A stretch of DNA of 64,000 bases. Source: Candidatus Woesearchaeota archaeon. GTDB taxonomy: Archaea; Nanobdellota; Nanobdellia; Pacearchaeales; GW2011-AR1. Of this stretch, positions 31,901 through 63,757 are shown piece after piece; the stretch's first letter is position 1, and each line of letters starts with the position of its first letter. Position numbers and translations under genes: made by a program. Location of the stretch: the NCBI GenBank assembly GCA_964572995.1, contig CAZNIA010000001.1:5611-69610 (forward strand), given 5' to 3'. Below the pieces are notes generated by a model, which saw only the letters and a list, made by a program, of their open reading frames with translations, searched no databases and was not told where the DNA came from.

Positions 31901-34900
31901 TCTAAATGCTGAACCATCATATAATTAGAATCCCAAACTTTCGATGGGTTTTGCTGATTTGCTGAATTTGAATTATTATAATACATATAAAAAACATTAT
32001 TTGAAACAGAAGAAAGATTAACTTTAATCCAAGCAATAAGATGGGCATGAGTTGAATTGTAATTTTTATCAAATAATTCTATTTCGTGATTCAATTTATT
32101 CTTTCCATCTAAAGAAGTAAATAATATATCATAACCATCTGTTCTTGAATAATCGTGCAATGCCGCATCATAAATATCAATTAACATTGGGAAATTAGTA
32201 AGATTTGCTGTTATCTTTGATGAAGATACATTAATCTGCCTTCTTTTATTCCATTCTGAGTGATACCAACTTGACCAGGATAGAGTCTGATTATTATGCC
32301 ATCCTCCATTCCAGGTTCCATATAGTGAACAGAAACCCAATCCATCTGAATCCATTGCTGTAAAGTTAAAAAAGTTATTTTGAAGGGAATTAAAATAAGT
32401 TTTATTAGTTGGAGTAACAAGAGTTATTGCTGGCCCAGTGGTTGATACTGAAAAGCTAACTTCCACTATAGATAAATGATTGAGAGTGTCATTAGAATAA
32501 AAATTAAGACTATGAGTTCCTTCACTTGTATCAAAAGTGGTATTTGTTCCACAGGCGATTGTTTGATTTACCTGATTGTCTATATTCCACCAACACATGC
32601 TTACGCCTGCAACATTATCTCTTATAGTATAAGTTAAAGGAAGGCTGGAATTATAACTATAAGCCTTGAGTTCTGGTTCAAGAATATCTACTGTGGGTCC
32701 AACTGTATCTAACCCTATTTTTCTTGTTAAAGTTGAATTTATATTGTATGCTAAATCGATTACAGTAACATTATAATAATAAACTCCATCATTTAAATCT
32801 GTCCAGTTAATCTCTCTTCTTGAATCATTATAAGTTGAAGAATTGAAAAGATTGTATCCTGAATCATAAAGATTAAATGTAACATTTGCTTCATTCAATT
32901 CTGTAACAGAAAGATTTACATAAATCCAGGTTCTTGAAAAGTTTGCATTGTTCTCTTCTGTACTAGAACTAAAAGAAATTAAAGAATAAGTAGTATCAAT
33001 AATTATTGTATTATTTTGTGTTTGGAAATTATTTCCTGATAAATCAAAGATATTATAAAACCATTTGAAAATTCCATCATATAAAAAGTTGTAAACTATT
33101 CCTGTAATTATATCTGTTCCTGAGATATCTTGAGTAGTCTCATTTATTAAATTAGTTTCATTGTATACAAATAAAGTCATATTTGATAGGCCATAATTGT
33201 CAGATGCATTTAATGTAAAATTCTGCAAAGAGGAATTTAAATAAGTATTATTCTCAGGAGAGACCAAGGTTGCATTTGGATTTTCTAAATCTATAATCGC
33301 AAATTGGGTTTCATTATAATAAATAGAATAATTAAAAAAATCATCTCTCATCATTGAAAAATTGTAAATGCCTACTGCCAATTCCTGTTCTGAGTTATTT
33401 GATATGAATGTTCCGTTTCTATATAATGTGAAAGGAGTTGTACAATTTGCCCAGACTAAAAAAACATCTGAATAATTTAAGGGACTAGTTGCATTGAATA
33501 AAACCTGACAATTTTCTGGATTTTTATTTAATGTAAAAAAACTTGTGTTATAAATAAAAGAATAATTTGAAGTGTCTGTTCTTTGAGCTGTAAAATTGAA
33601 ATATCCTGCCCCATTTATTTGTTCTGAATTATTTAATATTATTGTCCCATCTCTATATAACGTAAATGTGGAAGTGGCATTTGCCCAGACTAAAAAAGTG
33701 TCAGGATAAGTTAATGGACTGGTTGAATTGAATAAAACTTGAAAGTTTTCTGGGTTTTTATTAACAGTAAAGAATTGTGTATTTATTATGTTTGTATAAT
33801 TTGCAGTGTCTGTTCTTTGTACTGTTAAATTATAATATCCTGCCCCTGAATTAATCAATGAATTGTTTGAAGTTATTGTTCCGTTTAAATAAAAGGTGTA
33901 ACCTGATGAACAATTTGTATATGCAATAAATGTTTCAGGATAAGTTATTGGAGAAGTTGCATTGAAATAAACTCCACAATCATAATAGCTTGATTTATTT
34001 ATCTGAACTGTATATCTTGTCCAATTGATATTATTAGCTGTATCATTAATTGTAACATTAATTTCATAGTTACCTACTGCCAAAGAGGTTGCATTACTTA
34101 AAAATCCTGATTGATTTATTGAAAACCTTGTATCATTAACAGAATAATATCCAAATTCAATGTCGTCTGTTGCATCGAAGTCTACACCCAGAGATTCATT
34201 TCCATAAAAGAGTGATTCATTATCTGGAATCTTTGTAAAATATGGAGGAATAGTATCAACAATTCTAAATTGCGTCTGATTAAATAGCATAGAATAGTTT
34301 TGAGTGTCTGTCCTAAACATTGAAAAATTATATGCACTAACAGACAATACCTGTTCCGAATTATTTGAGATTAATGTTCCGTTTCTATATAATGTAAAAG
34401 GGGTTGTGCAATTTGCCCAGACTAAAAAGGTGTCAGGATAAGTTAATGGACTAGTTGCATTGAATAAAACCTGACAATTTTCGGGGTTTTTATTAACAGT
34501 AAAGAATTGTGTATCAATTATTTTTGAATAATTCTGTGTGTCTGTTCTTTGTACTGTTAAATTATAATATCCTGCCCCTGAATTAATCAATGAATTGTTT
34601 GAAGTTATTGTTCCGTTTAAATAAAAGGTGTAACCTGATGAACAATTTGTATATGCAATAAATGTTTCAGGATAAGTTATTGGAGAAGTTGCATTGAAAT
34701 AAACTCCACAATCATAATAGCTTGATTTATTTATCTGAACTGTATATCTTGTCCAATTGATATTATTAGCTGTATCATTAATTGTAACATTAATTTCATA
34801 GTTACCTACTGCCAAAGAGGTTGCATTACTTAAAAATCCTGATTGATTTATTGAAAACCTTGTATCATTAACAGAATAATATCCAAATTCAATGTCGTCT

Positions 34901-37008
34901 GTTGCATCGAAGTCTACACCCAGAGATTCATTTCTGTAGAATATAGAAGAGTTTTGGGGGATTTTAATAAAAGTTGGAGAAGTCAAATCAAGAAAAAACT
35001 CCCCTGTTGAAATAGCTATCCAACTAAATTCTCTTCCATTGCAATTATTTCTGGTATCATCATCTTCTGCTGTTACGCTGAAAGAAGTTGTTGTTTTCCC
35101 AGACACTTCTATTTCACAAGTATCTGCTGTACCTGTTCTTGATGCTGTTGTTAAAACAACGTAATTGGTGTTTGGAAATGAACTTCCTAATGAAATTGAT
35201 TTTGAAGTTGCCCCAGAAGCAGTGTCATTTCCCGATTTAATGATTATTCCTCCGACTGTTTCTGTACCATAAGAAACAGCACACCAATCAATACTGCTAA
35301 CAGCTTCTGCTGCTCCTCCATCATCTAAAATTACTGAATTCCAACTTCCTGCTGATTTTGAAGAATAACTAACTCTTGGAGAATCAGCATCCCAAGGAGT
35401 ATAAGCAACAACTGCATAGTTTGTATCTGGGAAACTGGATTCAAAATTTATTGTGGATGTGCTTGAACCTGAACCTGAATTACATTTAACAGAAATGTTC
35501 TGGAAATCAAATTCTCCAAAAGAAAGAGCAGCCCATTCAACCCCTGCTGATTCGTTTGCACCTCCATCATCATTAATCCTATTTATTCTGAATCCTGTTG
35601 CTGCCTTTCTATCATATTGTATTGAGAAAATTGCATCGGTATCTTGTTGGCCTGAAAATAAAATAGAATAATCTGCATCAGGCATAGCAGTTGAAAAAGA
35701 AATTGAAGTTGGGGTATTTGCAGTATACGAACTTACTCCTGTACGAGCATAAAAATTAGGATCAATAATGTGATCAAACTCAACATTTCCCCCAACAATT
35801 CTTAAATCAAATGTGTCTTGAATTTCTTGTAAATTTGTCAAATAGACCTTATTATAATTATTATTAGTTAAAGGATTAAATTCTGCAATTTTCTCTGTTG
35901 AATCCTTTTCATAAACTTCAATAACAGGGTTTCCACTTATTATTCTCGGATACAAGGTTATATCTCTGGTATTATCTAAAGGTATTTCAAATGTAATCCT
36001 TACATAATCCCCCTCTGAGATTTTCTCACTCCAAATATCATCTAATTCTTTAACTTCATTGTAAATATCTGAAATAAACTCTCTAGATGGAGAAAGGTGC
36101 TCTGCATTTGTTATAATTATTATTTCAAATGTTTGATTAGATAAATGAGGAACAATCCATTCAATATAATCCAATAATCCATTTTCATTTGTATCAGAAG
36201 CATTAAAATCAATGTATGTGTTATTTTCTTTCCAATAAATCTGGATTGACTTCTTATTTTGCGTCTCTTTAGGAAGATTTGTATAAGAAAGTACATCTTG
36301 ATAACTAATTTCTTCAGGAGAATAAATAACAACTTCTTTTTTGTTTTCAGAAACACTTATTTCCTCTATTTTTGGGGGCCCAGTAGAATATTCTAATGTG
36401 AGTTGCTCTAATGTGTATTCATTAATCTGGACGTATCTCTTTTCATTAGATTCTATTACCTCATAATTGGAAAAAACCTCTCCATTATTTTTTTTAATTG
36501 TTAAATTTGTTATTTCTGGAATTTCAACAAGAGTTTCATTCACTGTTTTTTTCCAACGCACATTTTTATTTATTTCTGCTTTCTCCTGAATTAATTCTCC
36601 TTTAGTAGGGGTGTTTAGGGGAGACTCAGGAATAAGAGGAATATTTGAAGATGAAGAAACTACAGCAAAGGAATAAGATTTTTTTTCGTTTCCTCTTTTA
36701 AAATAAATAGAATAATTTCCTTCTTCAAGAAGATCAATAGAAAATCTGTCATTTGAACCAATCCTAAAATTTCTTTCTCCAGAAGGATTCATAATTATAA
36801 TTTCATAGTTGCCCATTTTGGATAAATCAAATTTTAGAACTGTTCCAAGAACATATGTACTGTCTTGTTTAAAATCAAAAAAAATAGAATCTTTGGAAGT
36901 ATCTACTTCTCCAGAGGTTGTTGAAGAAAAAATTATAAAAAAGATTATTCCAAAAATAAATAAGATAAAAAATCCAAAAACCCCTGCTTTAATCAACCCT
37001 TTTTTCAT
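25966..37008 (-). CDS. giant (3680 aa) N-glycosylated surface protein. It shares the head module with giant 1 and carries LamG/concanavalin-like and two DUF2341-like modules, >10 copies of a ~97-aa repeat, two 246-aa near-identical repeats, and a C-terminal FN3-like region
   Basis: The N-terminal anchor is LIKAGVFGFFILFIFGIIFFIIFS. The head segment ...IQIYWKENNTYIDFNASDTNENGLLDYIEWIVPHLSNQTFEIIIITNAEHL... is about 70% identical to giant 1. The LamG block from GKVDGADNLDGSNDMLNSTSNF to FNGTFDEIRVSNTSRS is also about 70% identical to giant 1. TWNGGWHNNQT occurs twice. Confidence 0.85.
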   Translation of the reverse strand: MKKGLIKAGVFGFFILFIFGIIFFIIFSSTTSGEVDTSKDSIFFDFKQDSTYVLGTVLKFDLSKMGNYEIIIMNPSGERNFRIGSNDRFSIDLLEEGNYSIYFKRGNEKKSYSFAVVSSSSNIPLIPESPLNTPTKGELIQEKAEINKNVRWKKTVNETLVEIPEITNLTIKKNNGEVFSNYEVIESNEKRYVQINEYTLEQLTLEYSTGPPKIEEISVSENKKEVVIYSPEEISYQDVLSYTNLPKETQNKKSIQIYWKENNTYIDFNASDTNENGLLDYIEWIVPHLSNQTFEIIIITNAEHLSPSREFISDIYNEVKELDDIWSEKISEGDYVRITFEIPLDNTRDITLYPRIISGNPVIEVYEKDSTEKIAEFNPLTNNNYNKVYLTNLQEIQDTFDLRIVGGNVEFDHIIDPNFYARTGVSSYTANTPTSISFSTAMPDADYSILFSGQQDTDAIFSIQYDRKAATGFRINRINDDGGANESAGVEWAALSFGEFDFQNISVKCNSGSGSSTSTINFESSFPDTNYAVVAYTPWDADSPRVSYSSKSAGSWNSVILDDGGAAEAVSSIDWCAVSYGTETVGGIIIKSGNDTASGATSKSISLGSSFPNTNYVVLTTASRTGTADTCEIEVSGKTTTSFSVTAEDDDTRNNCNGREFSWIAISTGEFFLDLTSPTFIKIPQNSSIFYRNESLGVDFDATDDIEFGYYSVNDTRFSINQSGFLSNATSLAVGNYEINVTINDTANNINWTRYTVQINKSSYYDCGVYFNATSPITYPETFIAYTNCSSGYTFYLNGTITSNNSLINSGAGYYNLTVQRTDTQNYSKIIDTQFFTVNKNPENCQVLFNATSPLTYPDTFLVWANCTTPFTLYRNGTLISNNSEQVLSVSAYNFSMFRTDTQNYSMLFNQTQFRIVDTIPPYFTKIPDNESLFYGNESLGVDFDATDDIEFGYYSVNDTRFSINQSGFLSNATSLAVGNYEINVTINDTANNINWTRYTVQINKSSYYDCGVYFNATSPITYPETFIAYTNCSSGYTFYLNGTITSNNSLINSGAGYYNLTVQRTDTANYTNIINTQFFTVNKNPENFQVLFNSTSPLTYPDTFLVWANATSTFTLYRDGTIILNNSEQINGAGYFNFTAQRTDTSNYSFIYNTSFFTLNKNPENCQVLFNATSPLNYSDVFLVWANCTTPFTLYRNGTFISNNSEQELAVGIYNFSMMRDDFFNYSIYYNETQFAIIDLENPNATLVSPENNTYLNSSLQNFTLNASDNYGLSNMTLFVYNETNLINETTQDISGTDIITGIVYNFLYDGIFKWFYNIFDLSGNNFQTQNNTIIIDTTYSLISFSSSTEENNANFSRTWIYVNLSVTELNEANVTFNLYDSGYNLFNSSTYNDSRREINWTDLNDGVYYYNVTVIDLAYNINSTLTRKIGLDTVGPTVDILEPELKAYSYNSSLPLTYTIRDNVAGVSMCWWNIDNQVNQTIACGTNTTFDTSEGTHSLNFYSNDTLNHLSIVEVSFSVSTTGPAITLVTPTNKTYFNSLQNNFFNFTAMDSDGLGFCSLYGTWNGGWHNNQTLSWSSWYHSEWNKRRQINVSSSKITANLTNFPMLIDIYDAALHDYSRTDGYDILFTSLDGKNKLNHEIELFDKNYNSTHAHLIAWIKVNLSSVSNNVFYMYYNNSNSANQQNPSKVWDSNYMMVQHLEETGTGSRVDSTSNGRNMTSAGYEGDEAITGKVDGADNLDGSNDMLNSTSNFMSNLGSFTLEGWIYPRAWGSRVSLYGQNDVTEFFIDGTNTVMIWTSGGGSTSTSYTYGVNSWHHVVAVGTGTNLTLYFDGSPASSGGSSTASYGSSAYFVKIGEGVVDASGGYFNGTFDEIRVSNTSRSPVWINASFQNQNNPSSFYTLGGETTSPSLSFLVNLSVDGNYLWNVRCNDTLGSSAFAFINNTFVLDNTFPQIDFVYPTDINGSNKSQNWIYINTSITELNPKNITFNLYFSNYTLVNSTTYTDTTRTSINFTSLLDNSYLYDVTVFDMVNLSNTTSTRKITLDTTKPLIDYSSPTENNYANFSRNWIYINTSITELNPKNITFNLYFSNYTLVNSTTYTDTTRTSINFTSLLDNSYLYNVTVFDMVNLSNTTSTRKITLDTLPPFVDFGIGTANNNTKFARLWIYVNTSVIEEHEANITFNLYNSAHNLINSSTYLDKRRTINWTNLEEGFYYYNITVFDFVNLSNSTSTRKINLNLTLPSINFIFPTEENLASLSRDWVYVNTSTSNVNEEINVTFGLYNLSGLVNESIYTDSRREINWTNLQQGLYYYNVTLFDDLDGEFLTLTRAITLDTNNPNATLVSPENETYANSTLQNLTVNANDNLGLSNMTLFLYNETNLINETTQDISGTDIITGIVYNFLYDGIFKWFYKIFDLAGNSFQTQNNTITIDTTYPQIVYSLLTENDYSNFSRNWIYVNVSVIELNEANITFRLNYLNGTLVNSTVYTDSRREINWTNLPDAIYYYNVILVDLAYNVNSTSTRQIGLDTTPPNATLISPLNNSYVNSSSQNLTVNLTDNLKLSNLTLSVYNQTHLINQTIQNISGTNLLKGIIYNLPSEGFFSWNYKVSDIAGNTFGSSNNSFYYDGTTPQISYTFPTENDNTNFSRTWIYINTSIVESNFANITFNLYNSENILVNSSSYNDSRRFINFTSLPDGIYYYNVTILDLAYNINFTSTRKIGLDNTGPTVIIISPEPKVYAYNTSLPLNYTIYDNVVGLSMCWWNLDNQANQSISCGTNTTFDTTEATHTLYFYSNDTFGNIALAKRTFSISIYGPAVSLFSPEDNSYFTSFDDEEFHFNFSDADGISYCSLYGTWNGGWHNNQTKEINWYSSGWSKRKLINITNPSLYTLEQNYSMLLTLDTTGSDFLDNGDDLRIVYWNGSQNIELDRYNSTAFDDPSTEIWFRIQAPISAGKFDDNYYIYHSNSDASNPKNNGSNVFEFFEDFNRPNSDTVGNGWTETRGTWAILNNRVRNTLDGDSDLTRTTVTGNHSIRAIVNHETSDSDWKLMARMPSASGNGYVYGYQNNYLQLSSTGHTLSNLGSYGFSPSVGTDYELELNTFGNRIVAYEDGNLIFNLTDSTYASGTSGLHAWATEQFDDVWIRKLIYPEPSYNEGDEELYYAINFSLALYEDGVYLWNIKCNDSLGYDGWALNNFTFTFDSTYPLISYSGSTENDTSNKSQTWVYVNTSVIEENEVNITFNLYYSNYTVYNSSTYTDSRRIINWTNLPEGSYYYNVTIFDVVNYSNTTETRKITLDTIPPNVNLLTENNSNFTGYLIPFLNYSVNDSNDVVNCTLYGTWDGIWHANETTSYPEKGASLNFSNKNVVTDGYYLWNILCFDNSGNFAFNSTNFTFAAFLPPDSPLTDISQTKNDGTGDIFLSWNTSAHAYKYRIYYTENASIAFALLNETFNLNYTDSNANQSRRRFYRISSWNPIAENFTNSTFGKTVYYIQSKPSINTRNWMGLYIETNITDSKEALGEINNITSFTMWNSTIQKRVTCNNFSCPDYPGCTLNNCNFNLEDGRGYEMNLNLTSPIFTNWSLVGAVKSPVEVDLIKNSTSFGKNWVSLYYNSSKTNAYNLISSVSYSDAVTNWNSFNQTSQGYISTGSPVPWIPPYIGTNFIIEPEKGYEVSVTQNSLYTQA
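30581..31165. repeat. near-identical 291-bp (97-aa) tandem repeat units inside giant gene 2
   Basis: The stretch tccagtgtta(t/c)ttttcttgttgaagtagtatttgaaag(g/a)tttaccatatcaaaaactgttacat... at 30581 recurs at 30872 with only a few mismatches. More diverged copies follow upstream. Confidence 0.8.
33808..34941. repeat. 738-bp tandem duplication with a ~395-bp perfectly identical core inside giant gene 2
   Basis: 33808-34203 and 34546-34941 are identical by eye. This gives the protein two copies of IP(Q/D)N.S.FY.NESLGVDFDATDDIEFGYYSVNDTRFSINQSGFLSNATSLAVGNYEINVTINDTANNINWTRYTVQINKSSYYDCGVYFNATSPITYPETFIAYTNCSSGYTFYLNGT. Confidence 0.85.
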
Positions 37009-54388: not shown

Positions 54389-55024
54389 ATGTTTGGATGG
54401 TTTTCTTGGAAAAAAGAGAGTAACAAGATAAGAGAGGATACAAAAGTTGGATTTGACTTTGTAAAAAAAGATATTGCTTCCTTAACAGGATGGATTAAAC
54501 ACCTTGATTCTGAAAGAAATCTGCAAAAAAGAGATATAGATCAAATAAAAGATGATTTGTCATCGATAAAAAATGAAATAGAAGCTATGAAAAATGTTCT
54601 TTCTATAATGAACGAATTAAAACCCAAACAGGTGTTTAAAACAAACAGGGCGCTGTTGGACAAACAAACACCTGTTTATGCTGTTCAAACAGGTGTTCAA
54701 ACAGGTGTTCAAACACCAAATTTAGACCAATTTTCAGTTACAGAAAGGGCAATACTTTGGATCTTATTAAATGCAGATATGAAGCTAGGATATGATGACT
54801 TATCAACAATATTAGGAAAGGAAAAAAGCACAATAAGGGGACAGATAAATGCAATAAAATCAAAAAGTGAGGGGTTAATAGAAGAGAGTATTGAAAGAAA
54901 TGGGAAGAAAAGGGTGTTTATACCTGAAGAAATAAAGGAAAAAATGCTAAAAAAACCAAAAGTGAGAGTTGGAGAATCTAAAAATAACAAGAAATATGAG
55001 AAAAATGAGGAAAAAACCACATGA
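54389..55024 (+). CDS. coiled-coil plus C-terminal winged-helix DNA-binding protein (211 aa) with a (VQTG)3 peptide repeat
   Basis: The N-terminal half is heptad-rich. The repeat VQTGVQTGVQT is encoded by gttcaaacaggt x3. The HTH-like segment is ERAILWILLNADMKLGYDDLSTILGKEKSTIRGQINAIK. Confidence 0.5.
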   Translation: MFGWFSWKKESNKIREDTKVGFDFVKKDIASLTGWIKHLDSERNLQKRDIDQIKDDLSSIKNEIEAMKNVLSIMNELKPKQVFKTNRALLDKQTPVYAVQTGVQTGVQTPNLDQFSVTERAILWILLNADMKLGYDDLSTILGKEKSTIRGQINAIKSKSEGLIEESIERNGKKRVFIPEEIKEKMLKKPKVRVGESKNNKKYEKNEEKTT

Positions 55025-55271: not shown

Positions 55272-56207
55272 TTAAAGTGCTCTTAATTGCAGAATTGTTG
55301 GAAGAGAGGCTATTTTTTTTAGGTTAGAAGAGACTGAAAGATGAATCGTTTTATTGTTTATTTTTGTTTTCTCGACGGGAATTCCTTTTTTTATTAATCT
55401 TCCTATATAATCTCTAATTGAACTTTCTGTTAAACCTAATTTAATTGAAAGGTTCTTATAATCTGTATATCCCTCTTCTTCTGAAAGCTGATAAATTACA
55501 GAAAAAACTGAGAATTCTTGATCTGTTAATCTTTTAAATTTTAATCTAACTTCTTTTTTTATGCTATCCAGAGAATCTAATATTTTTGCAGCGTCGTTTA
55601 TATAATCTGAAGAAGAATCTTCTTCTGATTTAATTCCTATATTATACGAACCTTTATCTGTCTGTTGGTTTGTCTGCTGGTTTGTCTGTCTGTCTGTTGG
55701 AACCCCTTCATTTCCTGTGGAAACTACCTTATTTTCGTCTTTTAAGGCGCTATAAGGTAAATTATGTGCTGGATTTGTCTTAATTTTCTCTTTTTCTGTT
55801 GGATTTTTTGAGACTTGTGTTGGAATAAAATCGTTTTGAGGATAAGGAAGAGAGTGGAGAGGAACATTTTGTGTTGAAAGGGGATTTAAGATAGGGGTTA
55901 AGCATATTGGAAATCCTTTTTGAAAAGGACAATTATATATTGGATGAATTAAAGAATTATCCTCAGAAGGAATATTCTCTTTTTGAAATTTTTCTTTTAA
56001 TATGGGAAGCTCATCTTTCTCTTCTTTCTCTTCTTTTCCTGTTCTTTCCGCCTTTTCATTCTTTCTAGCAATTATTTGAAGAACATCACATATTTCAATT
56101 AATCTTTGTCTTGTATCTTTTAATCCTTCACTTAATGAAGCTACTTCTCCTTTCAAAGATTCTATATCTTGTTTAACTTTAGAAAAAGCCTCTTTTACCT
56201 GTTCCAT
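55272..56207 (-). CDS. coiled-coil plus C-terminal winged-helix DNA-binding protein (311 aa) with a QTNQQTNQQT repeat. Its architecture parallels 54389..55024
   Basis: N-terminal coiled coil MEQVKEAFSKVKQDIESLKGEVASLSEGLKDTRQRL. The HTH-like segment is EFSVFSVIYQLSEEEGYTDYKNLSIKLGLTESSIRDYIGRLIKKGI. Confidence 0.5.
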   Translation of the reverse strand: MEQVKEAFSKVKQDIESLKGEVASLSEGLKDTRQRLIEICDVLQIIARKNEKAERTGKEEKEEKDELPILKEKFQKENIPSEDNSLIHPIYNCPFQKGFPICLTPILNPLSTQNVPLHSLPYPQNDFIPTQVSKNPTEKEKIKTNPAHNLPYSALKDENKVVSTGNEGVPTDRQTNQQTNQQTDKGSYNIGIKSEEDSSSDYINDAAKILDSLDSIKKEVRLKFKRLTDQEFSVFSVIYQLSEEEGYTDYKNLSIKLGLTESSIRDYIGRLIKKGIPVEKTKINNKTIHLSVSSNLKKIASLPTILQLRAL

Positions 56208-56293: not shown

Positions 56294-56560
56294 TTATTGT
56301 TTTTGTTTATATATTAAATAAGCTTTTTCACTTAATTTCCATCTGCTTCTCTTAAGATAATCTTTACCTTGAGGATTTTTTGTTATTTCTGTTACAAACT
56401 CTTTTTTCTTTAACTCTTTCAACAATCTTTTTACAAATTCTTCATCTCTTGCTATTTCTTTAGCTATGTGAAATGTAAAAAGAGGTTTTGGATTTGTTAT
56501 GTAAAGATAAGCTAATATCTGCTCTGAAATCTTTTCTTTTTTTTCCTTTGAAATATACAT
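56294..56560 (-). CDS. small winged-helix DNA-binding protein (88 aa)
   Basis: ISEQILAYLYITNPKPLFTFHIAKEIARDEEFVKRLLKELKKKEFV shows HTH-wing character. Confidence 0.45.
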   Translation of the reverse strand: MYISKEKKEKISEQILAYLYITNPKPLFTFHIAKEIARDEEFVKRLLKELKKKEFVTEITKNPQGKDYLKRSRWKLSEKAYLIYKQKQ

Positions 56561-56628: not shown

Positions 56629-56943
56629 TCACATTAAATCTTCTTCAGAAACAATCATAAAATCACCTATAGCTATTATTGAACTATAAGGAATTAAAAA
56701 CTCTCCAGAAGAGGTTTTTTCAAGATTTAAATTTCTTGTATAAGGTGTTGAATCTCTTATTACAATTCCTATTAATTCACCAGATCTTGTTTCAAATGTT
56801 ATATCTTTAACAAAACCTAATCTTTTTCCCTCTTTTGTAACAATCATCTTTCCTAATAAAGCATTAAAAGGATTTTTTTCGCTTTGCATAAGGAAAATAA
56901 AAGAAAACAATTTATAAACTTTTCTGTGAATAAATATACTCAT
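56629..56943 (-). CDS. PRC-barrel domain protein. The true start is probably the internal Met at 56889 (86 aa), since the first 18 codons extend into the oriC AT-tract
   Basis: GKMIVTKEGKRLGFVKDITFETRSGELIGIVIRD...FLIPYSSIIAIGDFMIVSEEDL follows the archaeal PRC-barrel pattern. Confidence 0.55.
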   Translation of the reverse strand: MSIFIHRKVYKLFSFIFLMQSEKNPFNALLGKMIVTKEGKRLGFVKDITFETRSGELIGIVIRDSTPYTRNLNLEKTSSGEFLIPYSSIIAIGDFMIVSEEDLM

Positions 56944-57070
56944 TAAATCTTAAATTAACCCTCCCTCCCCTTGATTTCTTATGGAAATATTTATAAAGAA
57001 TTTTTTTATTTTTTTATTTTTTTATTTATTTTATAAAAATATATATAATATAATATATATATAATATAAT

Positions 57071-57105
57071 TAATAATTAATAATTAATAATTAATAATTA
57101 ATAAT
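57071..57105. repeat. (TAATAAT)5 perfect tandem repeat inside the origin AT-rich region (candidate duplex-unwinding element)
   Basis: taataattaataattaataattaataattaataat is read directly. Confidence 0.85.
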
Positions 57106-57213
57106 TTAAATTAATAATTTTTATAATAATTTATAATTTAAAAAAATTAATTTTAAAATTTTTCATTTAAGTGGATAATTTAATTGAAGTTAATTAATTT
57201 CATTGTTTAATTC

Positions 57214-57242
57214 AATTTTCCACAGGAAATAGAGGTGTCTCT
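57214..57242 (+). promoter_or_regulatory. origin recognition box (ORB/mini-ORB) 1
   Basis: AATTTTCCACAGGAAATAGAGGTGTCTC contains the dyad TTCCACAGGAAA, which matches the archaeal mini-ORB core (TTCCA..GGAAA), followed by a G-rich element. Confidence 0.75.
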
Positions 57243-57310
57243 CTTAATTAGTGGTTATAATCTTTTATATAATCTTTAATTTTTTTTCATCGATATTTCA
57301 AAGGAAAATT

Positions 57311-57340
57311 AATTTTCCACAGGAAATATACGTGTGAGGC
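57311..57340 (+). promoter_or_regulatory. origin recognition box (ORB/mini-ORB) 2, 97 bp downstream of ORB1 and 35 bp upstream of the orc1 ATG
   Basis: AATTTTCCACAGGAAATATACGTGTGAGGC has a 17-mer identical to ORB1. Confidence 0.75.
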
Positions 57341-57361
57341 ACAAGGGAAATTTGAATTAAA

Positions 57362-58576
57362 ATGAAGTTAGATATAGATAAAATATTTGATAATTTTGAT
57401 AAAAATAGTGTATTTAAAAATAAAGCTATTTTACAATCTAATTATGCACCTAGCGAAATTCCACATAGAGAAGAGCAGATAAGGCAAATAGCTTCAATTT
57501 TAGCTCCTGTTTTAAGAGGAGAGAAAACAAGTAATTTATTTTTATATGGAAAAACAGGTACTGGAAAGACTCTTGCAATGAAATTTGTTCAAGAAGAATT
57601 ATATAAACGAGTTAAGAAGGACGCAGATTTTAAACTTAAAATAGAATATTTAAATTGTAAGATGAAGAAAGTATCTGATACTGAATATAGAATTCTTGCT
57701 GAATTAATTAAAAAAATGGGAGGAGAAGTTCCATTAACAGGTTTGCCTACCCAAGCTATTTATAATAAATTTATTGAAACAATTGATTCCGAAAAAAACT
57801 TAATTGTGCTTATTTTAGATGAAATAGATCAAACTGTTAAGAAGATTTCAAATGATTTTTTGTATAGTCTTGTTCGATTAAATTCTGAATTATCCAAATC
57901 TCAAATATGTCTTGTGGGAATAAGCAATGATTTGAGGTTTTTAGAAGAATTAGACCCCCGAGTTAGAAGCTCTTTATCGGAAGAGGAAATACTCTTTCAT
58001 CCTTATAATGCTCTTCAAATACAAGATATTCTTAATCAAAGGGCAGAATTAGCCTTTAAAGAAGAAGTTTTACAAGAAGGAGTTATAAATAAATGCGCTG
58101 CTCTTGCAGCAAAAGAACATGGTGATGCTAGAAGAGCTTTAGATTTGTTGAGAGTTGCAGGAGAATTAGCTGAAAGAGATAATTCCAGGAAAATTTTGTT
58201 GAAATATATTGATTATGCTAATGAAAAGATAGAAAAAGATAAAATTTTAGAAACAATTTCTTCTGAACCCAAGCAATTTCAATTAGTTTTAAGATCAATT
58301 ATTTATCTTTTAGAGCATCAAAAAAATGATTTACCTGTTTTTACTGGAGAAGTATATGATTTTTATCAACAACTTTGTCTTAAAAATAGATTGGAAGTTT
58401 TAACTCAAAGGAGAGTGGGAGAAATTATTCAAGAATTAGATATGTTAGGAATAATTAATGTAAGAGTAATTTCTAAGGGAAGGGGAGGTAGAATGAGAGA
58501 AATAAAAATGGCAATCTCCAAAGAAATTACAAATAAAGCCAAAGAAATAATTGAAAACTCTCTTAATTATGTTTAA
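57362..58576 (+). CDS. cdc6: Orc1/Cdc6 origin recognition/replication initiator protein (AAA+ plus C-terminal winged helix)
   Basis: Walker A is LFLYGKTGTGKT and Walker B is LILDEIDQ. Sensor and winged-helix regions are present, and the size (404 aa) and position next to the ORBs fit. Confidence 0.95.
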   Translation: MKLDIDKIFDNFDKNSVFKNKAILQSNYAPSEIPHREEQIRQIASILAPVLRGEKTSNLFLYGKTGTGKTLAMKFVQEELYKRVKKDADFKLKIEYLNCKMKKVSDTEYRILAELIKKMGGEVPLTGLPTQAIYNKFIETIDSEKNLIVLILDEIDQTVKKISNDFLYSLVRLNSELSKSQICLVGISNDLRFLEELDPRVRSSLSEEEILFHPYNALQIQDILNQRAELAFKEEVLQEGVINKCAALAAKEHGDARRALDLLRVAGELAERDNSRKILLKYIDYANEKIEKDKILETISSEPKQFQLVLRSIIYLLEHQKNDLPVFTGEVYDFYQQLCLKNRLEVLTQRRVGEIIQELDMLGIINVRVISKGRGGRMREIKMAISKEITNKAKEIIENSLNYV

Positions 58577-58590
58577 ATTTATATTTAAAA

Positions 58591-60243
58591 ATGGATCCAA
58601 AGCAACTTTTGAAGTTTTGTTTAGAGAATGGTTTATTAGTGGATAAGGATGTTTTGAATCTTTTTGATAATACAAATGATTTTGATTCTGTTAAACTTAT
58701 TATAAGCAAAATAAAAAATTATGCTCATCAGAATATTATAACCAAAAATATCTTTTATGAACATAAAGATAAAGTAAATGAATTTTTTTATGAATTGCCT
58801 CAAAAGACTCAGCAAGAACTTGAAAGTCTTAAAATTAAATTGGGTTTAAGTATAGAAATTTCAAGAGAAAAAAAATTGGGAGTAGAAGAAAATGGTCTTT
58901 CTTTTATAAATAAGCAAAATCATTCATCAATTGTTTCTTCTAATCTTCCAGGAGAAGTTTTGATTTTATCTTCTTTTCCTGTTGTAAATAAAAAATTAGA
59001 AGTTCAGGATTTTGTTAATTATTTTAGGAGTCGCTTTATTGAAATGAGAGGTATTTTGCAATCTAGACCTGAATTAAATAATCCTATTTCTATAAGTAAA
59101 ATATTTGGGAATAAGCAAAAAATTTCAATTATTGGAATAGTTTCAAGCAAATCATTCACGAAAAATAGAAATATTATCTTTGAGGTAGAAGATATAACAG
59201 GAAGAATTAAAATAATTATCAACAAAGATAAAAAAGAATTATATGAAAAGGCAGAGAATGTTGCATTGGATTCTGTTGTTGGATTTAAAGGTTCGGGTAA
59301 TGAAGAAAGATTTTTTGCAGAAGATATAATCTATCCTGATTCTGCTCTTCCAGAGAGAAAATTTTCTTTAACTGATGAATATGCTGCATTTATTGGTGAT
59401 TTACATTTTGGAAGTAAGAGGTTTATGAAAAGTAATTTTCTTAAATTTATTGAATATTTGAATGGAAATCTAGAAGAAGATAAAGAAGCAAGAAAAATAA
59501 AGTATCTTTTTTTGGTTGGAGATATTGTAACTGGTATTGGAAATTATCCTAATCAAGAGAAGGATTTGGAAATTTCGGATTTAGAAGAACAATTTTTTGG
59601 ATTAGCAGAACTTTTAAGTAAGATAAGAAAAGATATCAAAATAATCATTTCCCCTGGAAATCACGATGGAGTGAGATTAATGGAACCTCAACCGTTTTTA
59701 GATCAAAAATATTCCTGGCCATTATATGAAATGGAAAATGTATTTATTACTTCAAATCCTTGTTATGTTAATATTGGAAAAAGAGAAAATTTTTCTGGAT
59801 TTACTGTTTTAACTTATCATGGATTTTCTTATCCTTATTATGCAAACAATATTCCTTCACTTATTCAAAAGAAGGCTATGAATTGTCCAGAAGAAATAAT
59901 GAAATATTTACTTAAAAATAGACATCTTGCTCCAACCCATGCTTCAACACAATATTTTCCTCTTGAAAAAGATGGGCTTTTAATAAGAGAAATACCAGAT
60001 ATCTTTGTATCTGCTCATACTCATAAGTGTGGAGTAACTTATTATAATAATATTTTAATTGTTTCTATTTCTTGCTGGGAAGAAATGACTCCTTATCAAG
60101 AAAAATTCGGAAATATTCCAGATCATTGTAAGGTTCCTATATTTAATCTTAAAACAAGAAAAGTTAAGATTTTGGATTTTGAAGAAAAAGAGAATGAAAA
60201 ATTAAATCTCTCTTTAGAAGTGGAAGGTAATAAATCAATTTAA
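58591..60243 (+). CDS. polB: DNA polymerase II (PolD) small subunit DP1 (calcineurin-like phosphoesterase 3'-5' exonuclease)
   Basis: Phosphoesterase motifs FIGDLHFGS, LVGDIVTG, GNHDG and SAHTHK. There is an OB-fold region, and the size (550 aa) fits. The gene lies directly upstream of the DP2 gene. Confidence 0.92.
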   Translation: MDPKQLLKFCLENGLLVDKDVLNLFDNTNDFDSVKLIISKIKNYAHQNIITKNIFYEHKDKVNEFFYELPQKTQQELESLKIKLGLSIEISREKKLGVEENGLSFINKQNHSSIVSSNLPGEVLILSSFPVVNKKLEVQDFVNYFRSRFIEMRGILQSRPELNNPISISKIFGNKQKISIIGIVSSKSFTKNRNIIFEVEDITGRIKIIINKDKKELYEKAENVALDSVVGFKGSGNEERFFAEDIIYPDSALPERKFSLTDEYAAFIGDLHFGSKRFMKSNFLKFIEYLNGNLEEDKEARKIKYLFLVGDIVTGIGNYPNQEKDLEISDLEEQFFGLAELLSKIRKDIKIIISPGNHDGVRLMEPQPFLDQKYSWPLYEMENVFITSNPCYVNIGKRENFSGFTVLTYHGFSYPYYANNIPSLIQKKAMNCPEEIMKYLLKNRHLAPTHASTQYFPLEKDGLLIREIPDIFVSAHTHKCGVTYYNNILIVSISCWEEMTPYQEKFGNIPDHCKVPIFNLKTRKVKILDFEEKENEKLNLSLEVEGNKSI

Positions 60244-60292: not shown

Positions 60293-63200
60293 ATGAACAC
60301 AAAGGCATATTTTGAGAATTTAAAGAAAGATGTTGATGAAGTTTATTCTGTTGCTAGCTTGGCCCGCTCTAAGGGATATGATCCTGTTCATGAAGTTGAA
60401 ATCCCTCTTGCAATGAGTATGGCAGAAAAAGTGGTTGGGCTGATATCTACAATTTATCCTCAAATGAAGGGAGCTGGAATTGCAGAAAGGATTTTAGATT
60501 TAGAAAAAGAATATGGTAAATTGGATTCAACTATCCTGTTTAAAATTGCAGAAGAAGTAGCAAAGCAAAAATTCTGTAAATTTGAAAATTTATTGCAATC
60601 TATTGATGCTGGAATAAGGATTGCTTTTGCTTATACCACCTTAGGAGTTGTTTCTAGTCCAATAGAAGGTTTTACAGGAATAAAAACAAGAAAAACCAAA
60701 GATGGAAAAGATTATCTTGAAGCAAGTTTCTCTGGACCTATTAGAAGCGCAGGGACTACTGCAAGCTGTGTTATTTTAATTGTGATAGATTATTTAAGAG
60801 AAATTTTTGGTTTTGCAAAATATGATCCTACTCCAGATGAAATAAAAAGAGTTTATGCAGAATTAGAACATTTTCATGATAGAGTGAGTAATTTGCAGTA
60901 TATGCCTACAGAACAGGAAGCACTTTTTTTAGCAGCAAATCTTCCGATACAAGTTGCAGGAGATGCTTCAGAAACAATTGAAGTTCCAAATTATAAAAAC
61001 TTGGAAAGAGTGGACACAAATTATCTTAGAAGTGGTTTTTGTCTTATTATTGGAGAAGGATTAGCGCAAAAAGCAGCAAAAGGATTTAGATTACTTAATA
61101 GAGCAAAGAAAAACGGAATACAATCGACGGGTTTTGATTTTTTAGAAGAGTATATTAAAATACATGAAAAGAGGGACAAAGGAAAAGCAGATGATTCTCC
61201 CACATATATAAAAGATTTAGTTGCAGGAAGACCTATTTTTGGACATCCCTCTAAATCAGGGGGTTTTAGATTTAGATATGGAAGGGGAAGGGTTTCGGGT
61301 TTTAGTGCAACTTCTTTACATCCTGCAACTATGGCTGTAACAGATGATTTTATTGCAATAGGGACTCAACTTAAAATAGAAAAACCAACAAAAGGGTGTG
61401 CTGTTACTGTTTGTGATAGTGTAGAAGGACCCATTGTAAGATTATTTAATGGGAGTGTAAAAAAATTATCTTCTATGGAAGAAGCAAAGGCTTCTTATTC
61501 AGATATAGATGAAGTTATTTATCTTGGAGATATTCTTTTTCCTTTTAGTGATTTGGCAAATAGAAATGCTAATCTTATTAAACCGGGATATGTAGAAGAG
61601 TGGTGGCATTTAGAATTGCTTGAAAAAGACAATTTATTGAAGGAAATTAATCCCTTTACTATCTCTTTGGATAACGCAATAGAATTGAGTGAAAAATATT
61701 CTTTGCCTCTTCACCCAAAATATATTTTTTATTGGACTCAAATTTCTAGAGAAAATTTATTTGATTTATTTTCTTGGTTAGAAAATGCAAGAATAGAAAA
61801 GAAAATAATTTTGCCTTACAACAAATCTGAAAGAGAAAAATTTTCTTTGGGAAAAAGAACCTTGGAACTTTTAGGTGTTGAACATCAGGTTACAATAGAA
61901 AATGTTGTTTTAACAGAAGAAATAAGTAGGGCTCTTTTATTGAATTTAGGTCTTGATTTAATTGATTTGCAAGATAAAGAATCGAATTTTAAGAAAATTT
62001 TTGATTTTTATAATTCTAATCCGGATAAATCGGTTTTAGAAATTGTCAATTCTTTTTCTAAATTTATTATTAAAGACAAAGCCGGAGAATTTATTGGTGC
62101 ACGTATGGGTAGGCCAGAAAAAGCTAAATTAAGAAAACTTATTGGAAGTCCAAATGTTCTATTTCCTGTAGGCAAAGAAGGAGGAAGATTAAGAAGTTTA
62201 CAAGCTGCATGTAAAGAAGGAAAAGTTTGGGGAAGCTTTCCTTTATATTATTGCGAATCCTGTAAAAAGGAAACGATTTACCCTATTTGCGAAGAATGTA
62301 ATTTAAGCACAAAGTCTATGTATTATTTTATTGAAACAAAAGAGAAACTTTTCAATAAATCAAATGAAAATTCTTCTAAAGAAGGTATACGCTATTATAA
62401 TCGATCCGTTGATATTAATCACTATTATGATCATGCATTAAAGAGATTGGGGCTTTCAAAAGAAGAAGCACCTCTTTTGATTAAAGGAGTAAGAGGAACT
62501 TCGTCTGCAAATCATGCTATAGAAGATCTTTCAAAAGGTATCTTAAGGGCAAAGTATGACCTGCAGGTGAATAAAGACGGAACCATACGTTTTGATGCAA
62601 CAGAATTACCTTTGCTTTATTTTAAACCAAAAGAAGTTTATGTAAGTGTTGAAAAACTTAAGGAAATAGGATATGATCAAGATATATATGGAAAAGAATT
62701 GGAAAATGAAGATCAAATTTTGGAATTAATGCCTCATGATGTTTTATTGCCTAGTTCATTTGAGTCTCTTGATGAAAGAGCAGATGATGTATTTTTCAAA
62801 GTTTGCAATTTCGTAGATGAAGAATTAGAAAAAGTTTATGGGTTAAAAAAAATATATAATATTCAGAAAAAAGAAGATTTGATTGGTAAATTGGGTGTTT
62901 GTATGGCTCCCCATAATTGTGCAGGAGTTATTTGTAGGTTCGTGGGTTTTTCTAATACTCAAGGTTTATTTGCTAGCCCATATATGCATGCAGCCGTAAG
63001 GAGAGATTGTGACGGAGATGAAGCAGCAATTATGCTTTTAGGTGATGTTTTACTTAATTTTTCAAGAGAATTCTTACCTAGTCATAGGGGAGGTACGCAA
63101 GATGCTCCCTTAGTTTTAAATGCAAAAATTGATGCAGGGGAAGTTGATGACCAAATTTTGGATTTTGAATTTTTAAGAAATTATCCTCTGGAATTATATA

Positions 63201-63757
63201 GAACGGCTGAAAGAGGAGTGCATTCTTCTGAGGTTAAAATAAATACTGTAAGAGAAATTTTGAAAAGAGGAGAGAACCCATTTATTGGAGCAGGATTTAC
63301 TCACGATACAAATAATTTCAATGAAGGCGTTTTATGCTCTTCATATAAACGTTTGTTAACAATGAAAGATAAAGTAAATCATCAAATGAATTTAGTTGAA
63401 AAATTAAGATCTGTAGATACAGCAGATACAGCAAGGCTAATTATTGACAGACATTTTATACGAGATATGAGGGGTAACCTTAGAAAGTTTTCTATGCAAG
63501 AATTTAGATGTGTTGGTTGTAATGAAATTATAAGGAGAGTTCCACTTAATGGAGTTTGTCCACTTTGTAAAGGGAAACTTATTTTTACTATTCATGAAGG
63601 GGGGATAAAAAAATACTTGGATCCTGCGTTGGATTTAGCTAAAAAATACAATCTTTCCAGATACATGCAACAAAATTTGGAATTAGTTAAGAGATATGTT
63701 GAAAGTATTTTTGGGAGAGAATTAGAAAAGCAAGAGAACATAAGTAAATGGTTTTAA
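60293..63757 (+). CDS. polC: DNA polymerase II (PolD) large catalytic subunit DP2, no intein
   Basis: GRPIFGHPSKSGGFRFRYGRGR, ARMGRPEKA, the zinc-finger CESCKKETIYPICEECN and catalytic NCAGV...DCDGDEAA, and the C-terminal zinc-finger CVGCNE...CPLCKG. The length is 1154 aa. Confidence 0.95.
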   Translation: MNTKAYFENLKKDVDEVYSVASLARSKGYDPVHEVEIPLAMSMAEKVVGLISTIYPQMKGAGIAERILDLEKEYGKLDSTILFKIAEEVAKQKFCKFENLLQSIDAGIRIAFAYTTLGVVSSPIEGFTGIKTRKTKDGKDYLEASFSGPIRSAGTTASCVILIVIDYLREIFGFAKYDPTPDEIKRVYAELEHFHDRVSNLQYMPTEQEALFLAANLPIQVAGDASETIEVPNYKNLERVDTNYLRSGFCLIIGEGLAQKAAKGFRLLNRAKKNGIQSTGFDFLEEYIKIHEKRDKGKADDSPTYIKDLVAGRPIFGHPSKSGGFRFRYGRGRVSGFSATSLHPATMAVTDDFIAIGTQLKIEKPTKGCAVTVCDSVEGPIVRLFNGSVKKLSSMEEAKASYSDIDEVIYLGDILFPFSDLANRNANLIKPGYVEEWWHLELLEKDNLLKEINPFTISLDNAIELSEKYSLPLHPKYIFYWTQISRENLFDLFSWLENARIEKKIILPYNKSEREKFSLGKRTLELLGVEHQVTIENVVLTEEISRALLLNLGLDLIDLQDKESNFKKIFDFYNSNPDKSVLEIVNSFSKFIIKDKAGEFIGARMGRPEKAKLRKLIGSPNVLFPVGKEGGRLRSLQAACKEGKVWGSFPLYYCESCKKETIYPICEECNLSTKSMYYFIETKEKLFNKSNENSSKEGIRYYNRSVDINHYYDHALKRLGLSKEEAPLLIKGVRGTSSANHAIEDLSKGILRAKYDLQVNKDGTIRFDATELPLLYFKPKEVYVSVEKLKEIGYDQDIYGKELENEDQILELMPHDVLLPSSFESLDERADDVFFKVCNFVDEELEKVYGLKKIYNIQKKEDLIGKLGVCMAPHNCAGVICRFVGFSNTQGLFASPYMHAAVRRDCDGDEAAIMLLGDVLLNFSREFLPSHRGGTQDAPLVLNAKIDAGEVDDQILDFEFLRNYPLELYRTAERGVHSSEVKINTVREILKRGENPFIGAGFTHDTNNFNEGVLCSSYKRLLTMKDKVNHQMNLVEKLRSVDTADTARLIIDRHFIRDMRGNLRKFSMQEFRCVGCNEIIRRVPLNGVCPLCKGKLIFTIHEGGIKKYLDPALDLAKKYNLSRYMQQNLELVKRYVESIFGRELEKQENISKWF

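Follow-up and report, generated by a model that had tools for sequence, protein, structure and literature searches.

We describe a putative replication origin in a 64-kb stretch of DNA from a Candidatus Woesearchaeota archaeon (contig CAZNIA010000001.1, positions 5,611 to 69,610; this whole stretch is called the window below, and position 1 is its first letter). The region from 55.7 to 57.4 kb, immediately upstream of an orc1/cdc6 gene, is likely to be the chromosomal origin (oriC, of the oriC1 type) of this Woesearchaeota/Pacearchaeota-group DPANN archaeon. It carries four origin recognition boxes (ORBs), named ORB-D, ORB-L, ORB-R1 and ORB-R2 from left to right (D, L, R1 and R2 for short), whose sequences, orientation, conservation and constraint at the DNA level are established here. 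The locus is very probably a member of the known Orc1/ORB class of origins, with an inverted pair of boxes, a second box that takes part in bracketing a probable promoter and a distal box inside a gene. An Orc1/Cdc6-type origin beside the cdc6-DP1-DP2 genes had been proposed earlier from the sequence of the window (the original prediction) and is supported by sequence and comparative tests, but the anatomy given for it was incomplete. Only two ORBs had been described, direct rather than inverted and both on the cdc6 side of the duplex unwinding element (DUE), and this is wrong: there are four, of which ORB-L is inverted and lies beyond the DUE and ORB-D lies within a coding sequence.

The comparison set comprises 80 related DPANN loci, all from different species, whose Cdc6 is 72-98% identical to that of the window. 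The G+C content of the window is about 30%, and the related loci are 69% A+T overall. Before a position weight matrix (PWM) was built, the motif TTCCAnnGGAAA was mapped with respect to the cdc6 ATG across the related loci, where it forms two clusters: 60 matches on the plus strand, at no more than 200 bp upstream of the ATG, and a second group 1.6-2.4 kb upstream, mostly on the minus strand. A 23-nt PWM was trained on the R-type and D-type sites of the related loci, sites of the ORB-L class being excluded from training. Only four sites of the window reach 22 bits or more, all inside 1.6 kb, and shuffled windows give 0-1 matches at 12 bits or more. These four sites, scoring 22-38 bits, match the archaeal consensus of a TCCA..GAAA dyad with an optional GGGGT string; in place of this string ORB-D and ORB-L have GGGG(T), and ORB-R1 and ORB-R2 have GTGT. 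The elements of the locus, from left to right, are:

55657-55726, minus strand: ORB-D composite, made of the dyad, GGGG at 55703-55706, TTCCA and an (ACAG)n tract, and translated as VSTGNEGVPTDRQTNQQTNQQT.
55701-55723, minus strand: ORB-D, 38.3 bits, the highest PWM score in the window; 1.26 kb to the left of ORB-L.
55795-55878, minus strand: three copies of the 9-mer T[TC]C[GA]ACA[CG]A, whose 5' termini are 55878, 55824 and 55803.
56959-56987 (PWM match at 56965-56987), minus strand: ORB-L, 22.1 bits.
56988-57216, no strand assigned: DUE, 229 bp, 95.6% A+T, reaching from ORB-L to ORB-R1.
56990-56997, minus strand: TATA-like box TTTATAAA, abutting the ORB-L dyad; column consensus TTTAaAAA.
57066-57106, no strand assigned: perfect period-7 microsatellite, (TTAATAA)~6, including (TAATAAT)5 at 57071-57105.
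57217-57239, plus strand: ORB-R1, 35.0 bits, with the dyad TTCCACAGGAAA at 57218-57229 and the tail AGAGGTGT.
57264-57272, plus strand: probable cdc6 TATA box TTTATATAA, in conserved columns between R1 and R2.
57314-57336, plus strand: ORB-R2, 33.1 bits, with the dyad at 57315-57326 and the tail ATACGTGTG.

Among the related loci long enough to include these positions, nearly all show the order D(-), L(-), DUE, R1(+), R2(+), cdc6, and only about 10 matches fall outside these four positions in 595 kb of related loci.

The two boxes nearest to cdc6 lie in a 418-bp gap (56944-57361) between the start codon of a minus-strand PRC-barrel gene, which ends at 56943, and the cdc6 ATG at 57362. As originally predicted, the 17-mer AATTTTCCACAGGAAAT is found here in exactly two copies, both on the plus strand (57214-57230 and 57311-57327) and 97 bp apart from start to start. 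When up to three mismatches are allowed, the window holds 6 matches versus 1.36 expected, a number reached in 0 of 100 shuffles of the 64-kb sequence. The repeat stretches to 30 nt at 87% identity, and the core of the 17-mer matches the archaeal ORB dyad, as had also been proposed, and conforms to the published 'TCCA-GAAAC' core. The G/T-rich tails that were seen to follow the two copies (AGAGGTGTCT and ATACGTGTGAGG) are real and conserved, their core A-n-GTGT being kept in 53-60 of 60 proximal sites of the related loci; the canonical G-strings, however, are those of ORB-L and ORB-D. A search of the window for further copies, as suggested with the original prediction, returned the 17-mer only twice and the 12-mer TTCCACAGGAAA a third time, at 55711-55722.

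ORB-R1 points its dyad toward the DUE and its tail toward cdc6. Its counterpart, a plus-strand site 96-100 bp upstream of R2, is present in 73 related loci, with the consensus TTTCCAtaGGAAAta.AGGTGT. ORB-R2 starts 48 bp upstream of the cdc6 ATG, probably within the 5' untranslated region of the gene, and is likewise conserved in the relatives, where the tail A-c-GTGTG is kept. R1 and R2 lie 96-100 bp apart in every one of the 74 cases, while the length of the DUE ranges from 79 to 668 bp. In the alignment of the 74 R1-R2 intervals, columns conserved at 80% or more correspond to TTTATATAA and to TTTTTtTCGTTGA, the latter at about 57281-57293, some 20 bp past the former. Transcription of cdc6 probably starts near TTTTTtTCGTTGA, and R1 and R2 would then bracket the core promoter of the gene.

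ORB-L lies across the A+T-rich tract from R1, in inverted orientation, with its dyad toward the DUE and its G-string outward. Its minus-strand sequence is TTTCCATAAGAAAT-CAA-GGGGAGGGAGGG, in which the dyad is followed, after a spacer of 3 nt, by a genuine G-string. A counterpart, in the form of a minus-strand match at -240 to -850, is found in 53 related loci, and the class consensus reads TTTCcAta.GAAAt.AaGGGGtgaG. Given this conserved inverted box beyond the DUE, two boxes of opposite orientation lie on either side of the element, an arrangement known from Sulfolobus oriC1: ORB-L (minus) and ORB-R1 (plus) enclose 229 bp in the window and are arranged likewise in the 53 loci. The TATA-like box TTTATAAA, immediately next to the ORB-L dyad, probably serves as promoter for the PRC-barrel gene that runs leftward, which would place ORB-L between a TATA box and its start site.

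Between ORB-L and ORB-R1 the gap measures 79-668 bp, with a median A+T content of 89% in 54 cases versus 69% for whole loci. Its two parts behave differently across species. The left ~75 bp of the DUE are conserved in sequence, with T-tracts followed by TTATAAAAATTTATATTATATAGTATATA, the motif TATAAAAAT and an ATATA-rich segment, and by analogy could hold a specific element like the ucm of Sulfolobus. To the right, the DUE turns into hypervariable microsatellite sequence, for which TRF reports a period of 7 and 10.9 copies at 57066-57138 of the window. In this right-hand zone other species carry long (AAT)n (for example L022, L047 and L062), long (TAG)n (L038) or (TAATAA)n (L075) repeats, and therefore (TAATAAT)5 is lineage-specific. 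The repeat, which had been proposed as an unwinding element along with long A/T runs, is indeed perfect and lies within an A+T-rich tract, but the heptamer is not conserved and represents one microsatellite state among others. We also observed that 23 of the 80 related contigs stop within 700 bp upstream of cdc6, in or beside the DUE, in agreement with the expectation that a low-complexity and variable A+T tract breaks short-read assemblies. In the metagenome-assembled genomes (MAGs) of the relatives, assemblies seem to break systematically at the origin.

The fourth box, ORB-D, lies inside the coding sequence of a 311-aa protein. Its dyad, at 55711-55722 on the minus strand, is the third exact copy of TTCCACAGGAAA, and its full sequence, TTCCACAGGAAATGAAGGGGTT, encodes the peptide VSTGNEGVPTDRQT. 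Counterparts of ORB-D occur in 48 related loci, at 1.26-2.6 kb to the left of ORB-L. Across 47 sequences about 55 nt are near-invariant, third codon positions included (TCC, GGA, GGG, GTT, ACA, GAC, AGA and CAG in 43-47 of 47). A number of them are seldom used by this genome, where TCC accounts for 6.5% of Ser, GGG for 14% of Gly, GAC for 16% of Asp and CAG for 26% of Gln codons. From aa 163 to aa 182, a single codon per conserved residue is used in 95-100% of the species; the folded N- and C-terminal domains served as an internal control, and there each conserved residue is written with 2-6 synonymous codons, with a top codon frequency of 0.3-0.9. Residue changes in ORB-D occur at the centre of the dyad (T/I/S/N/K) and in the spacer (E/Q/G/R/K/D), where ORBs are degenerate.

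Two further repeats accompany ORB-D. The (ACAG)n tract is translated as TDRQ repeats, and (ACAG)3 or longer occurs in the related loci only at ORB-D or, in four of them, within this gene but some 130 nt farther upstream. In addition to its three copies at 55795-55878, the 9-mer T[TC]C[GA]ACA[CG]A occurs a fourth time in the window, beginning at 55701, right after the G-string. Upstream of ORB-D there are 2-4 copies, and 150 matches fall within -125 to +50 nt of ORB-D in the 48 loci versus 60 in the other 1.19 Mb. The 9-mers encode [PS]T[HDQN], with Thr written as ACA in 121 of 121 cases and Pro/Ser as CCA or TCG in 105 of 121, even though TCG makes up just 1.8% of Ser codons. Frozen and often rare codons, set against the synonymous variation found elsewhere in the gene, point to selection on the DNA itself, and indicate that ORB-D, its (ACAG)n tract and the nearby 9-mers are all under selection at the DNA level.

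In our estimation the chances are evenly balanced that ORB-D is a functional, Orc1-bound auxiliary element of the origin. Equally balanced is the broader proposal that the origin of this clade includes a DNA-selected coding module, composed of a full-consensus ORB, (ACAG)n and a TYCRACASA array, which would act from 1.3-2.6 kb away, for example through Orc1-mediated looping, as a reservoir of Orc1, or through a second factor that binds the repeats. If such a module exists, the Pro/Ser swaps would be paired transitions that preserve the Y-C-R pattern, and the peptide STGNxGVPTDRQT would largely be a by-product. Rfam and tRNA scans of the window gave no matches, so ORB-D is not a known RNA gene. 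In two related loci an extra ORB is found in the same gene, inverted and 59 bp from ORB-D (L026, -1865, plus strand, 28.9 bits; L061, -2442, plus strand, 22.3 bits). A viral connection of the ORB pattern was considered and set aside, as 2.9 million viral contigs yielded 3 single matches, close to chance by a rough estimate. The IMG/VR contigs L081, L082 and L083 have one perfect full ORB each (dyad plus AGGGGT), without homologues of the proteins of the window.

The genes of the locus all point away from the origin, with the host gene of ORB-D, orf88 and the PRC-barrel gene on one side and cdc6-DP1-DP2 on the other:

55272-56207, minus strand: ORB-D host gene, 311 aa, syntenic in 49 loci.
56294-56560, minus strand: orf88, an 88-aa putative winged helix-turn-helix (wHTH) gene with weak TrmB/Csa3-HTH matches.
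56629-56943, minus strand: 104-aa PRC-barrel gene (Pfam PRC, 1.3e-9).
57362-58576, plus strand: orc1/cdc6, of the Orc1-1 type (Cdc6_lid 8.8e-26, Cdc6_C 7.5e-25).
58591-60243, plus strand: PolD DP1, identified by Pfam, syntenic in 80/80 loci.
60293-63757, plus strand: PolD DP2 (Pfam DP2 domains, 1e-72 to 1e-108), syntenic in 71/80 loci.

The Pfam matches and the synteny bear out the linkage of cdc6 with the small and large PolD subunits, as in Pyrococcus, on which the original prediction had relied. Over its full length, the Cdc6 protein matches Orc1-1 of S. solfataricus (2QBY_A, 1.8e-108) and ORC1 of A. pernix (2V1U, 3.9e-90), the two archaeal initiators that have been solved on ORB DNA, and its winged-helix segment TQRRV...GR.G..RE aligns with both. 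Thousands of close homologues are found in MAGs labelled Woesearchaeota, Pacearchaeota, Nanoarchaeota or Nanobdellota. ORC1/Cdc6 is reported among the single-copy core genes in a 2026 preprint that covers 208 complete Nanobdellota genomes and rotates them to ORC1.

On the other side of the DUE, synteny with minus-strand orientation is seen for orf88 in 54 loci and for the PRC-barrel gene in 57. The host protein of ORB-D has, in its AlphaFold2 model, a long N-terminal helix, a disordered stretch at aa 57-198 (predicted local distance difference test below 50) and a C-terminal MarR/ArsR-like winged helix; the disordered linker carries the ORB-D peptide and the repeats. Foldseek matches are to the winged-helix domains of MarR, HlyU and CodY, and together with a weak Pfam match to HTH_36 they describe a coiled-coil/winged-helix protein. 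Its homologues number 2459, and among the matches listed the named sources are DPANN hypothetical proteins. Searches of Pfam, NCBIfam and PDB sequences for its identity gave sub-threshold HTH matches only. An assignment as Cdt1/WhiP or another replication factor was tried and rejected, since no link was found and the fold seen by Foldseek is generic MarR/ArsR-like. Nearby, a plus-strand gene at 54389-55024 encodes a 211-aa protein with a coiled coil and an HTH, with weak Sta1/Lrs14-like matches, and is syntenic across the clade. With this gene and orf88 syntenic beside the host gene, uncharacterised putative DNA-binding proteins surround the origin. Farther away, a minus-strand open reading frame (ORF) of 1120 aa at 18774-22136 has CarboxypepD_reg-like domains together with an ATPase domain of the HerA type (DUF87/HerA_C).

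The arrangement of the locus can be compared with that of origins studied in other archaea. The paper on Ori-Finder 2 gives the ORB core as 'TCCA-GAAAC' and describes a terminal 'G-string (GGGGT)' in Sulfolobaceae and Methanomicrobia. The ORBs of Sulfolobus oriC1 are each occupied by a single Orc1-1 monomer in a defined polarity, and the inverted ORB2 and ORB3, which flank an A+T-rich DUE and are each needed in vivo, direct MCM to the DNA between them. The window resembles Sulfolobus/Saccharolobus oriC1 in its initiator, for which 2QBY_A is the nearest solved homologue, in a DUE next to orc1 and within inverted ORBs, in a total of more than two ORBs, and in the GGGGT G-string that ends an ORB. 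It differs in that the ORBs are four, the pair on the cdc6 side is GTGT-tailed and spaced 97-98 bp apart with a TATA box in between, a coding sequence 1.26-2.6 kb off holds the fourth ORB, and the left part of the DUE has a conserved sequence of its own.

Likeness to Thermococcales is found in the gene order oriC-cdc6-dp1-dp2 and at the level of the box. The oligonucleotide of P. furiosus ORB1, which is bound by Cdc6, reads TTCCAGTGGAAATGAAACTCTGGGGGG as its reverse complement, and in this orientation it has the ORB core TTCCAnnGGAAATGAA in common with ORB-D; the two agree over the same 16 nt save for the dyad centre, and the Pyrococcus G-string is 6 nt farther from the dyad. Moreover, Pyrococcus dp1 holds a second ORB cluster that is Cdc6-bound in vivo and conserved in Thermococcales. 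ORB-D is likewise an intragenic ORB site near the origin, but here the gene encodes a winged-helix protein, lies on the opposite side and has one full ORB together with (ACAG)n and the 9-mers. A dp1 cluster of that kind was sought as well: the window has only a 12.4-bit dyad there, and only 3 of 80 loci have a match of at least 14 bits in the region. This dyad of the window, TTTCCCCTGGAAA at 59648-59670, is palindromic and ORB-like, and is not conserved in relatives. Concerning A. pernix oriC1, the comparison is by protein homology, ORC1 (2V1U) being the second-best structural homologue. Like the origins of A. pernix and Methanothermobacter, the locus is built from ORB-type units (ORBs or mini-ORBs) that recur and are recognised by one Orc1/Cdc6; unlike them, it lacks an extended array of 13-bp mini-ORBs and has four distinct, individually conserved subtypes.

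From this arrangement we infer that Orc1 binds the boxes, that MCM is loaded, that the promoters are controlled and that ORB-D may have a role, and these inferences can be put together in a model. Orc1/Cdc6, made from the neighbouring gene, would bind as polar monomers to the inverted ORB-L and ORB-R1, whose dyads face the 229-bp DUE, and in its ATP-bound form would recruit MCM to the intervening DNA, after the manner of Sulfolobus ORB2/ORB3. R1 and R2, with their fixed spacing, would bracket the cdc6 core promoter, and ORB-L would separate the TATA box of the leftward operon from its start site. With the boxes placed in this way, occupancy of the origin by Orc1 would also repress the two divergent transcription units, which in the case of cdc6 amounts to autoregulation. 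ORB-D may serve as an auxiliary Orc1 site, contributing to looping or acting as a reservoir or a roadblock.

Several points weigh against identifying this locus as the origin. Orc1 binding and replication initiation here are predictions, and the promoter assignments at both sites come from consensus and conservation. The ORB-L dyad is degenerate (TTCCATAAGAAA). The PWM scores of R1, R2 and D are partly circular, the matrix having been trained on R-type and D-type sites; this circularity does not touch ORB-L, nor does it extend to the G-string, the ACAG tract or the spacing. As the analysis covers 64 kb of the genome, further ORB clusters or origins may exist elsewhere. Finally, the GC skew of the window shows no sign switch at 57 kb, where there is a small local dip only, and the cumulative minimum is at 22 kb. 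The skew tracks the coding strand, and at four-fold sites the plus strand is positive (G-rich) on both sides of the locus. The GC-skew check suggested with the original prediction consequently neither supports nor refutes it: coding strand and giant genes dominate the signal, through the strong C-over-G third-position bias of the giant ORFs, and the right arm of the window is too short, with 6.6 kb and three genes. The same giant genes bear on the argument that gene orientation is co-directional with replication. It is roughly true of the strands, with 40.5 kb of ORFs on the minus strand versus 13.1 kb on the plus strand to the left of 56944 (18 versus 12 ORFs), but it is a weak argument, as two giant genes dominate the minus-strand total. 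These minus-strand ORFs, at 419-12253 and 25966-37008, encode proteins of 3944 and 3680 aa with Laminin_G_3, bacterial Ig-like and DUF2341 domains, typical of DPANN surface proteins.

Other explanations of the boxes have to be considered. That they are chance repeats in A+T-rich intergenic DNA can be given practically no credence: short A/T-rich repeats are indeed common at about 30% G+C, and low-complexity inverted repeats are many in the region, but this explanation is refuted by the 17-mer pair, which exceeds all shuffles, and by its position, orientation and 96-100-bp spacing, kept in 73 other species. It is also very unlikely that some other transcription factor binds the proximal boxes and that their likeness to ORBs is accidental. 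The GTGT tails of R1 and R2 in place of GGGG, and the several small winged-helix genes nearby, would fit such a factor; against it, the 12-nt dyad of R1 and R2 is identical to that of ORB-D and agrees with the pan-archaeal core, the G-string sites L and D have the same dyad, and a position beside orc1 and a DUE is the canonical one. Somewhat less remote, yet still improbable, is the notion that all boxes are Orc1 operators only, serving cdc6 autoregulation and the PRC/wHTH operon, with replication starting elsewhere. In line with this notion, R1 and R2 bracket a conserved TATA at a fixed spacing, ORB-L abuts a TATA-like box and a skew switch is absent at the locus within the 64 kb; furthermore, a non-initiator Orc1 paralogue of Sulfolobales is a transcription regulator according to PMC9738581. 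However, a promoter operator has no need of a conserved element of 79-668 bp and about 89% A+T between inverted ORBs, and the protein encoded here is of the Orc1-1 type, single-copy in the phylum. Known origins, moreover, combine regulation with origin function, so the two are not exclusive.

For the ORB-D module a separate alternative deserves attention, although we regard it as unlikely: the array could belong to another factor, such as the host wHTH protein in a centromere-like or autoregulatory role, or could be a signal at the mRNA level. The (ACAG)n tract and the 9-mers are absent from the other three ORBs and reach far beyond the 23-bp box, the host protein is itself a winged-helix protein, and two more HTH-like genes adjoin it. 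A bacterial case comes to mind, as parS of Bacillus subtilis lies within the spo0J coding sequence; it is an analogy only, to an origin-proximal site inside the gene of a DNA-binding protein, since domain, proteins and motif differ. Nevertheless, the 23-nt core of ORB-D is the best PWM match in the window, spacer and GGGGT included, and has the same polarity as ORB-L, and its residue changes fall at the dyad centre and the 3-nt spacer, as ORB degeneracy predicts. An intragenic ORB cluster near the origin, bound by Cdc6, is also documented in Pyrococcus dp1.

Taken together, the data favour an Orc1/Cdc6-type origin at this locus. We found no ORB-level description of an origin for Woesearchaeota/Pacearchaeota-type DPANN archaea in the searchable literature, and the map offered here, with four boxes, a DUE, two putative promoters and a PWM, holds across about 80 species. 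The ORB-D module provides a natural case of overlapping protein and DNA codes, one that finders restricted to intergenic sequence, such as Ori-Finder 2, miss by design. ORB-D and the dp1 cluster of Thermococcales together suggest that archaeal origins may repeatedly include Orc1 sites placed at a distance and inside genes, a component that has been given too little attention.

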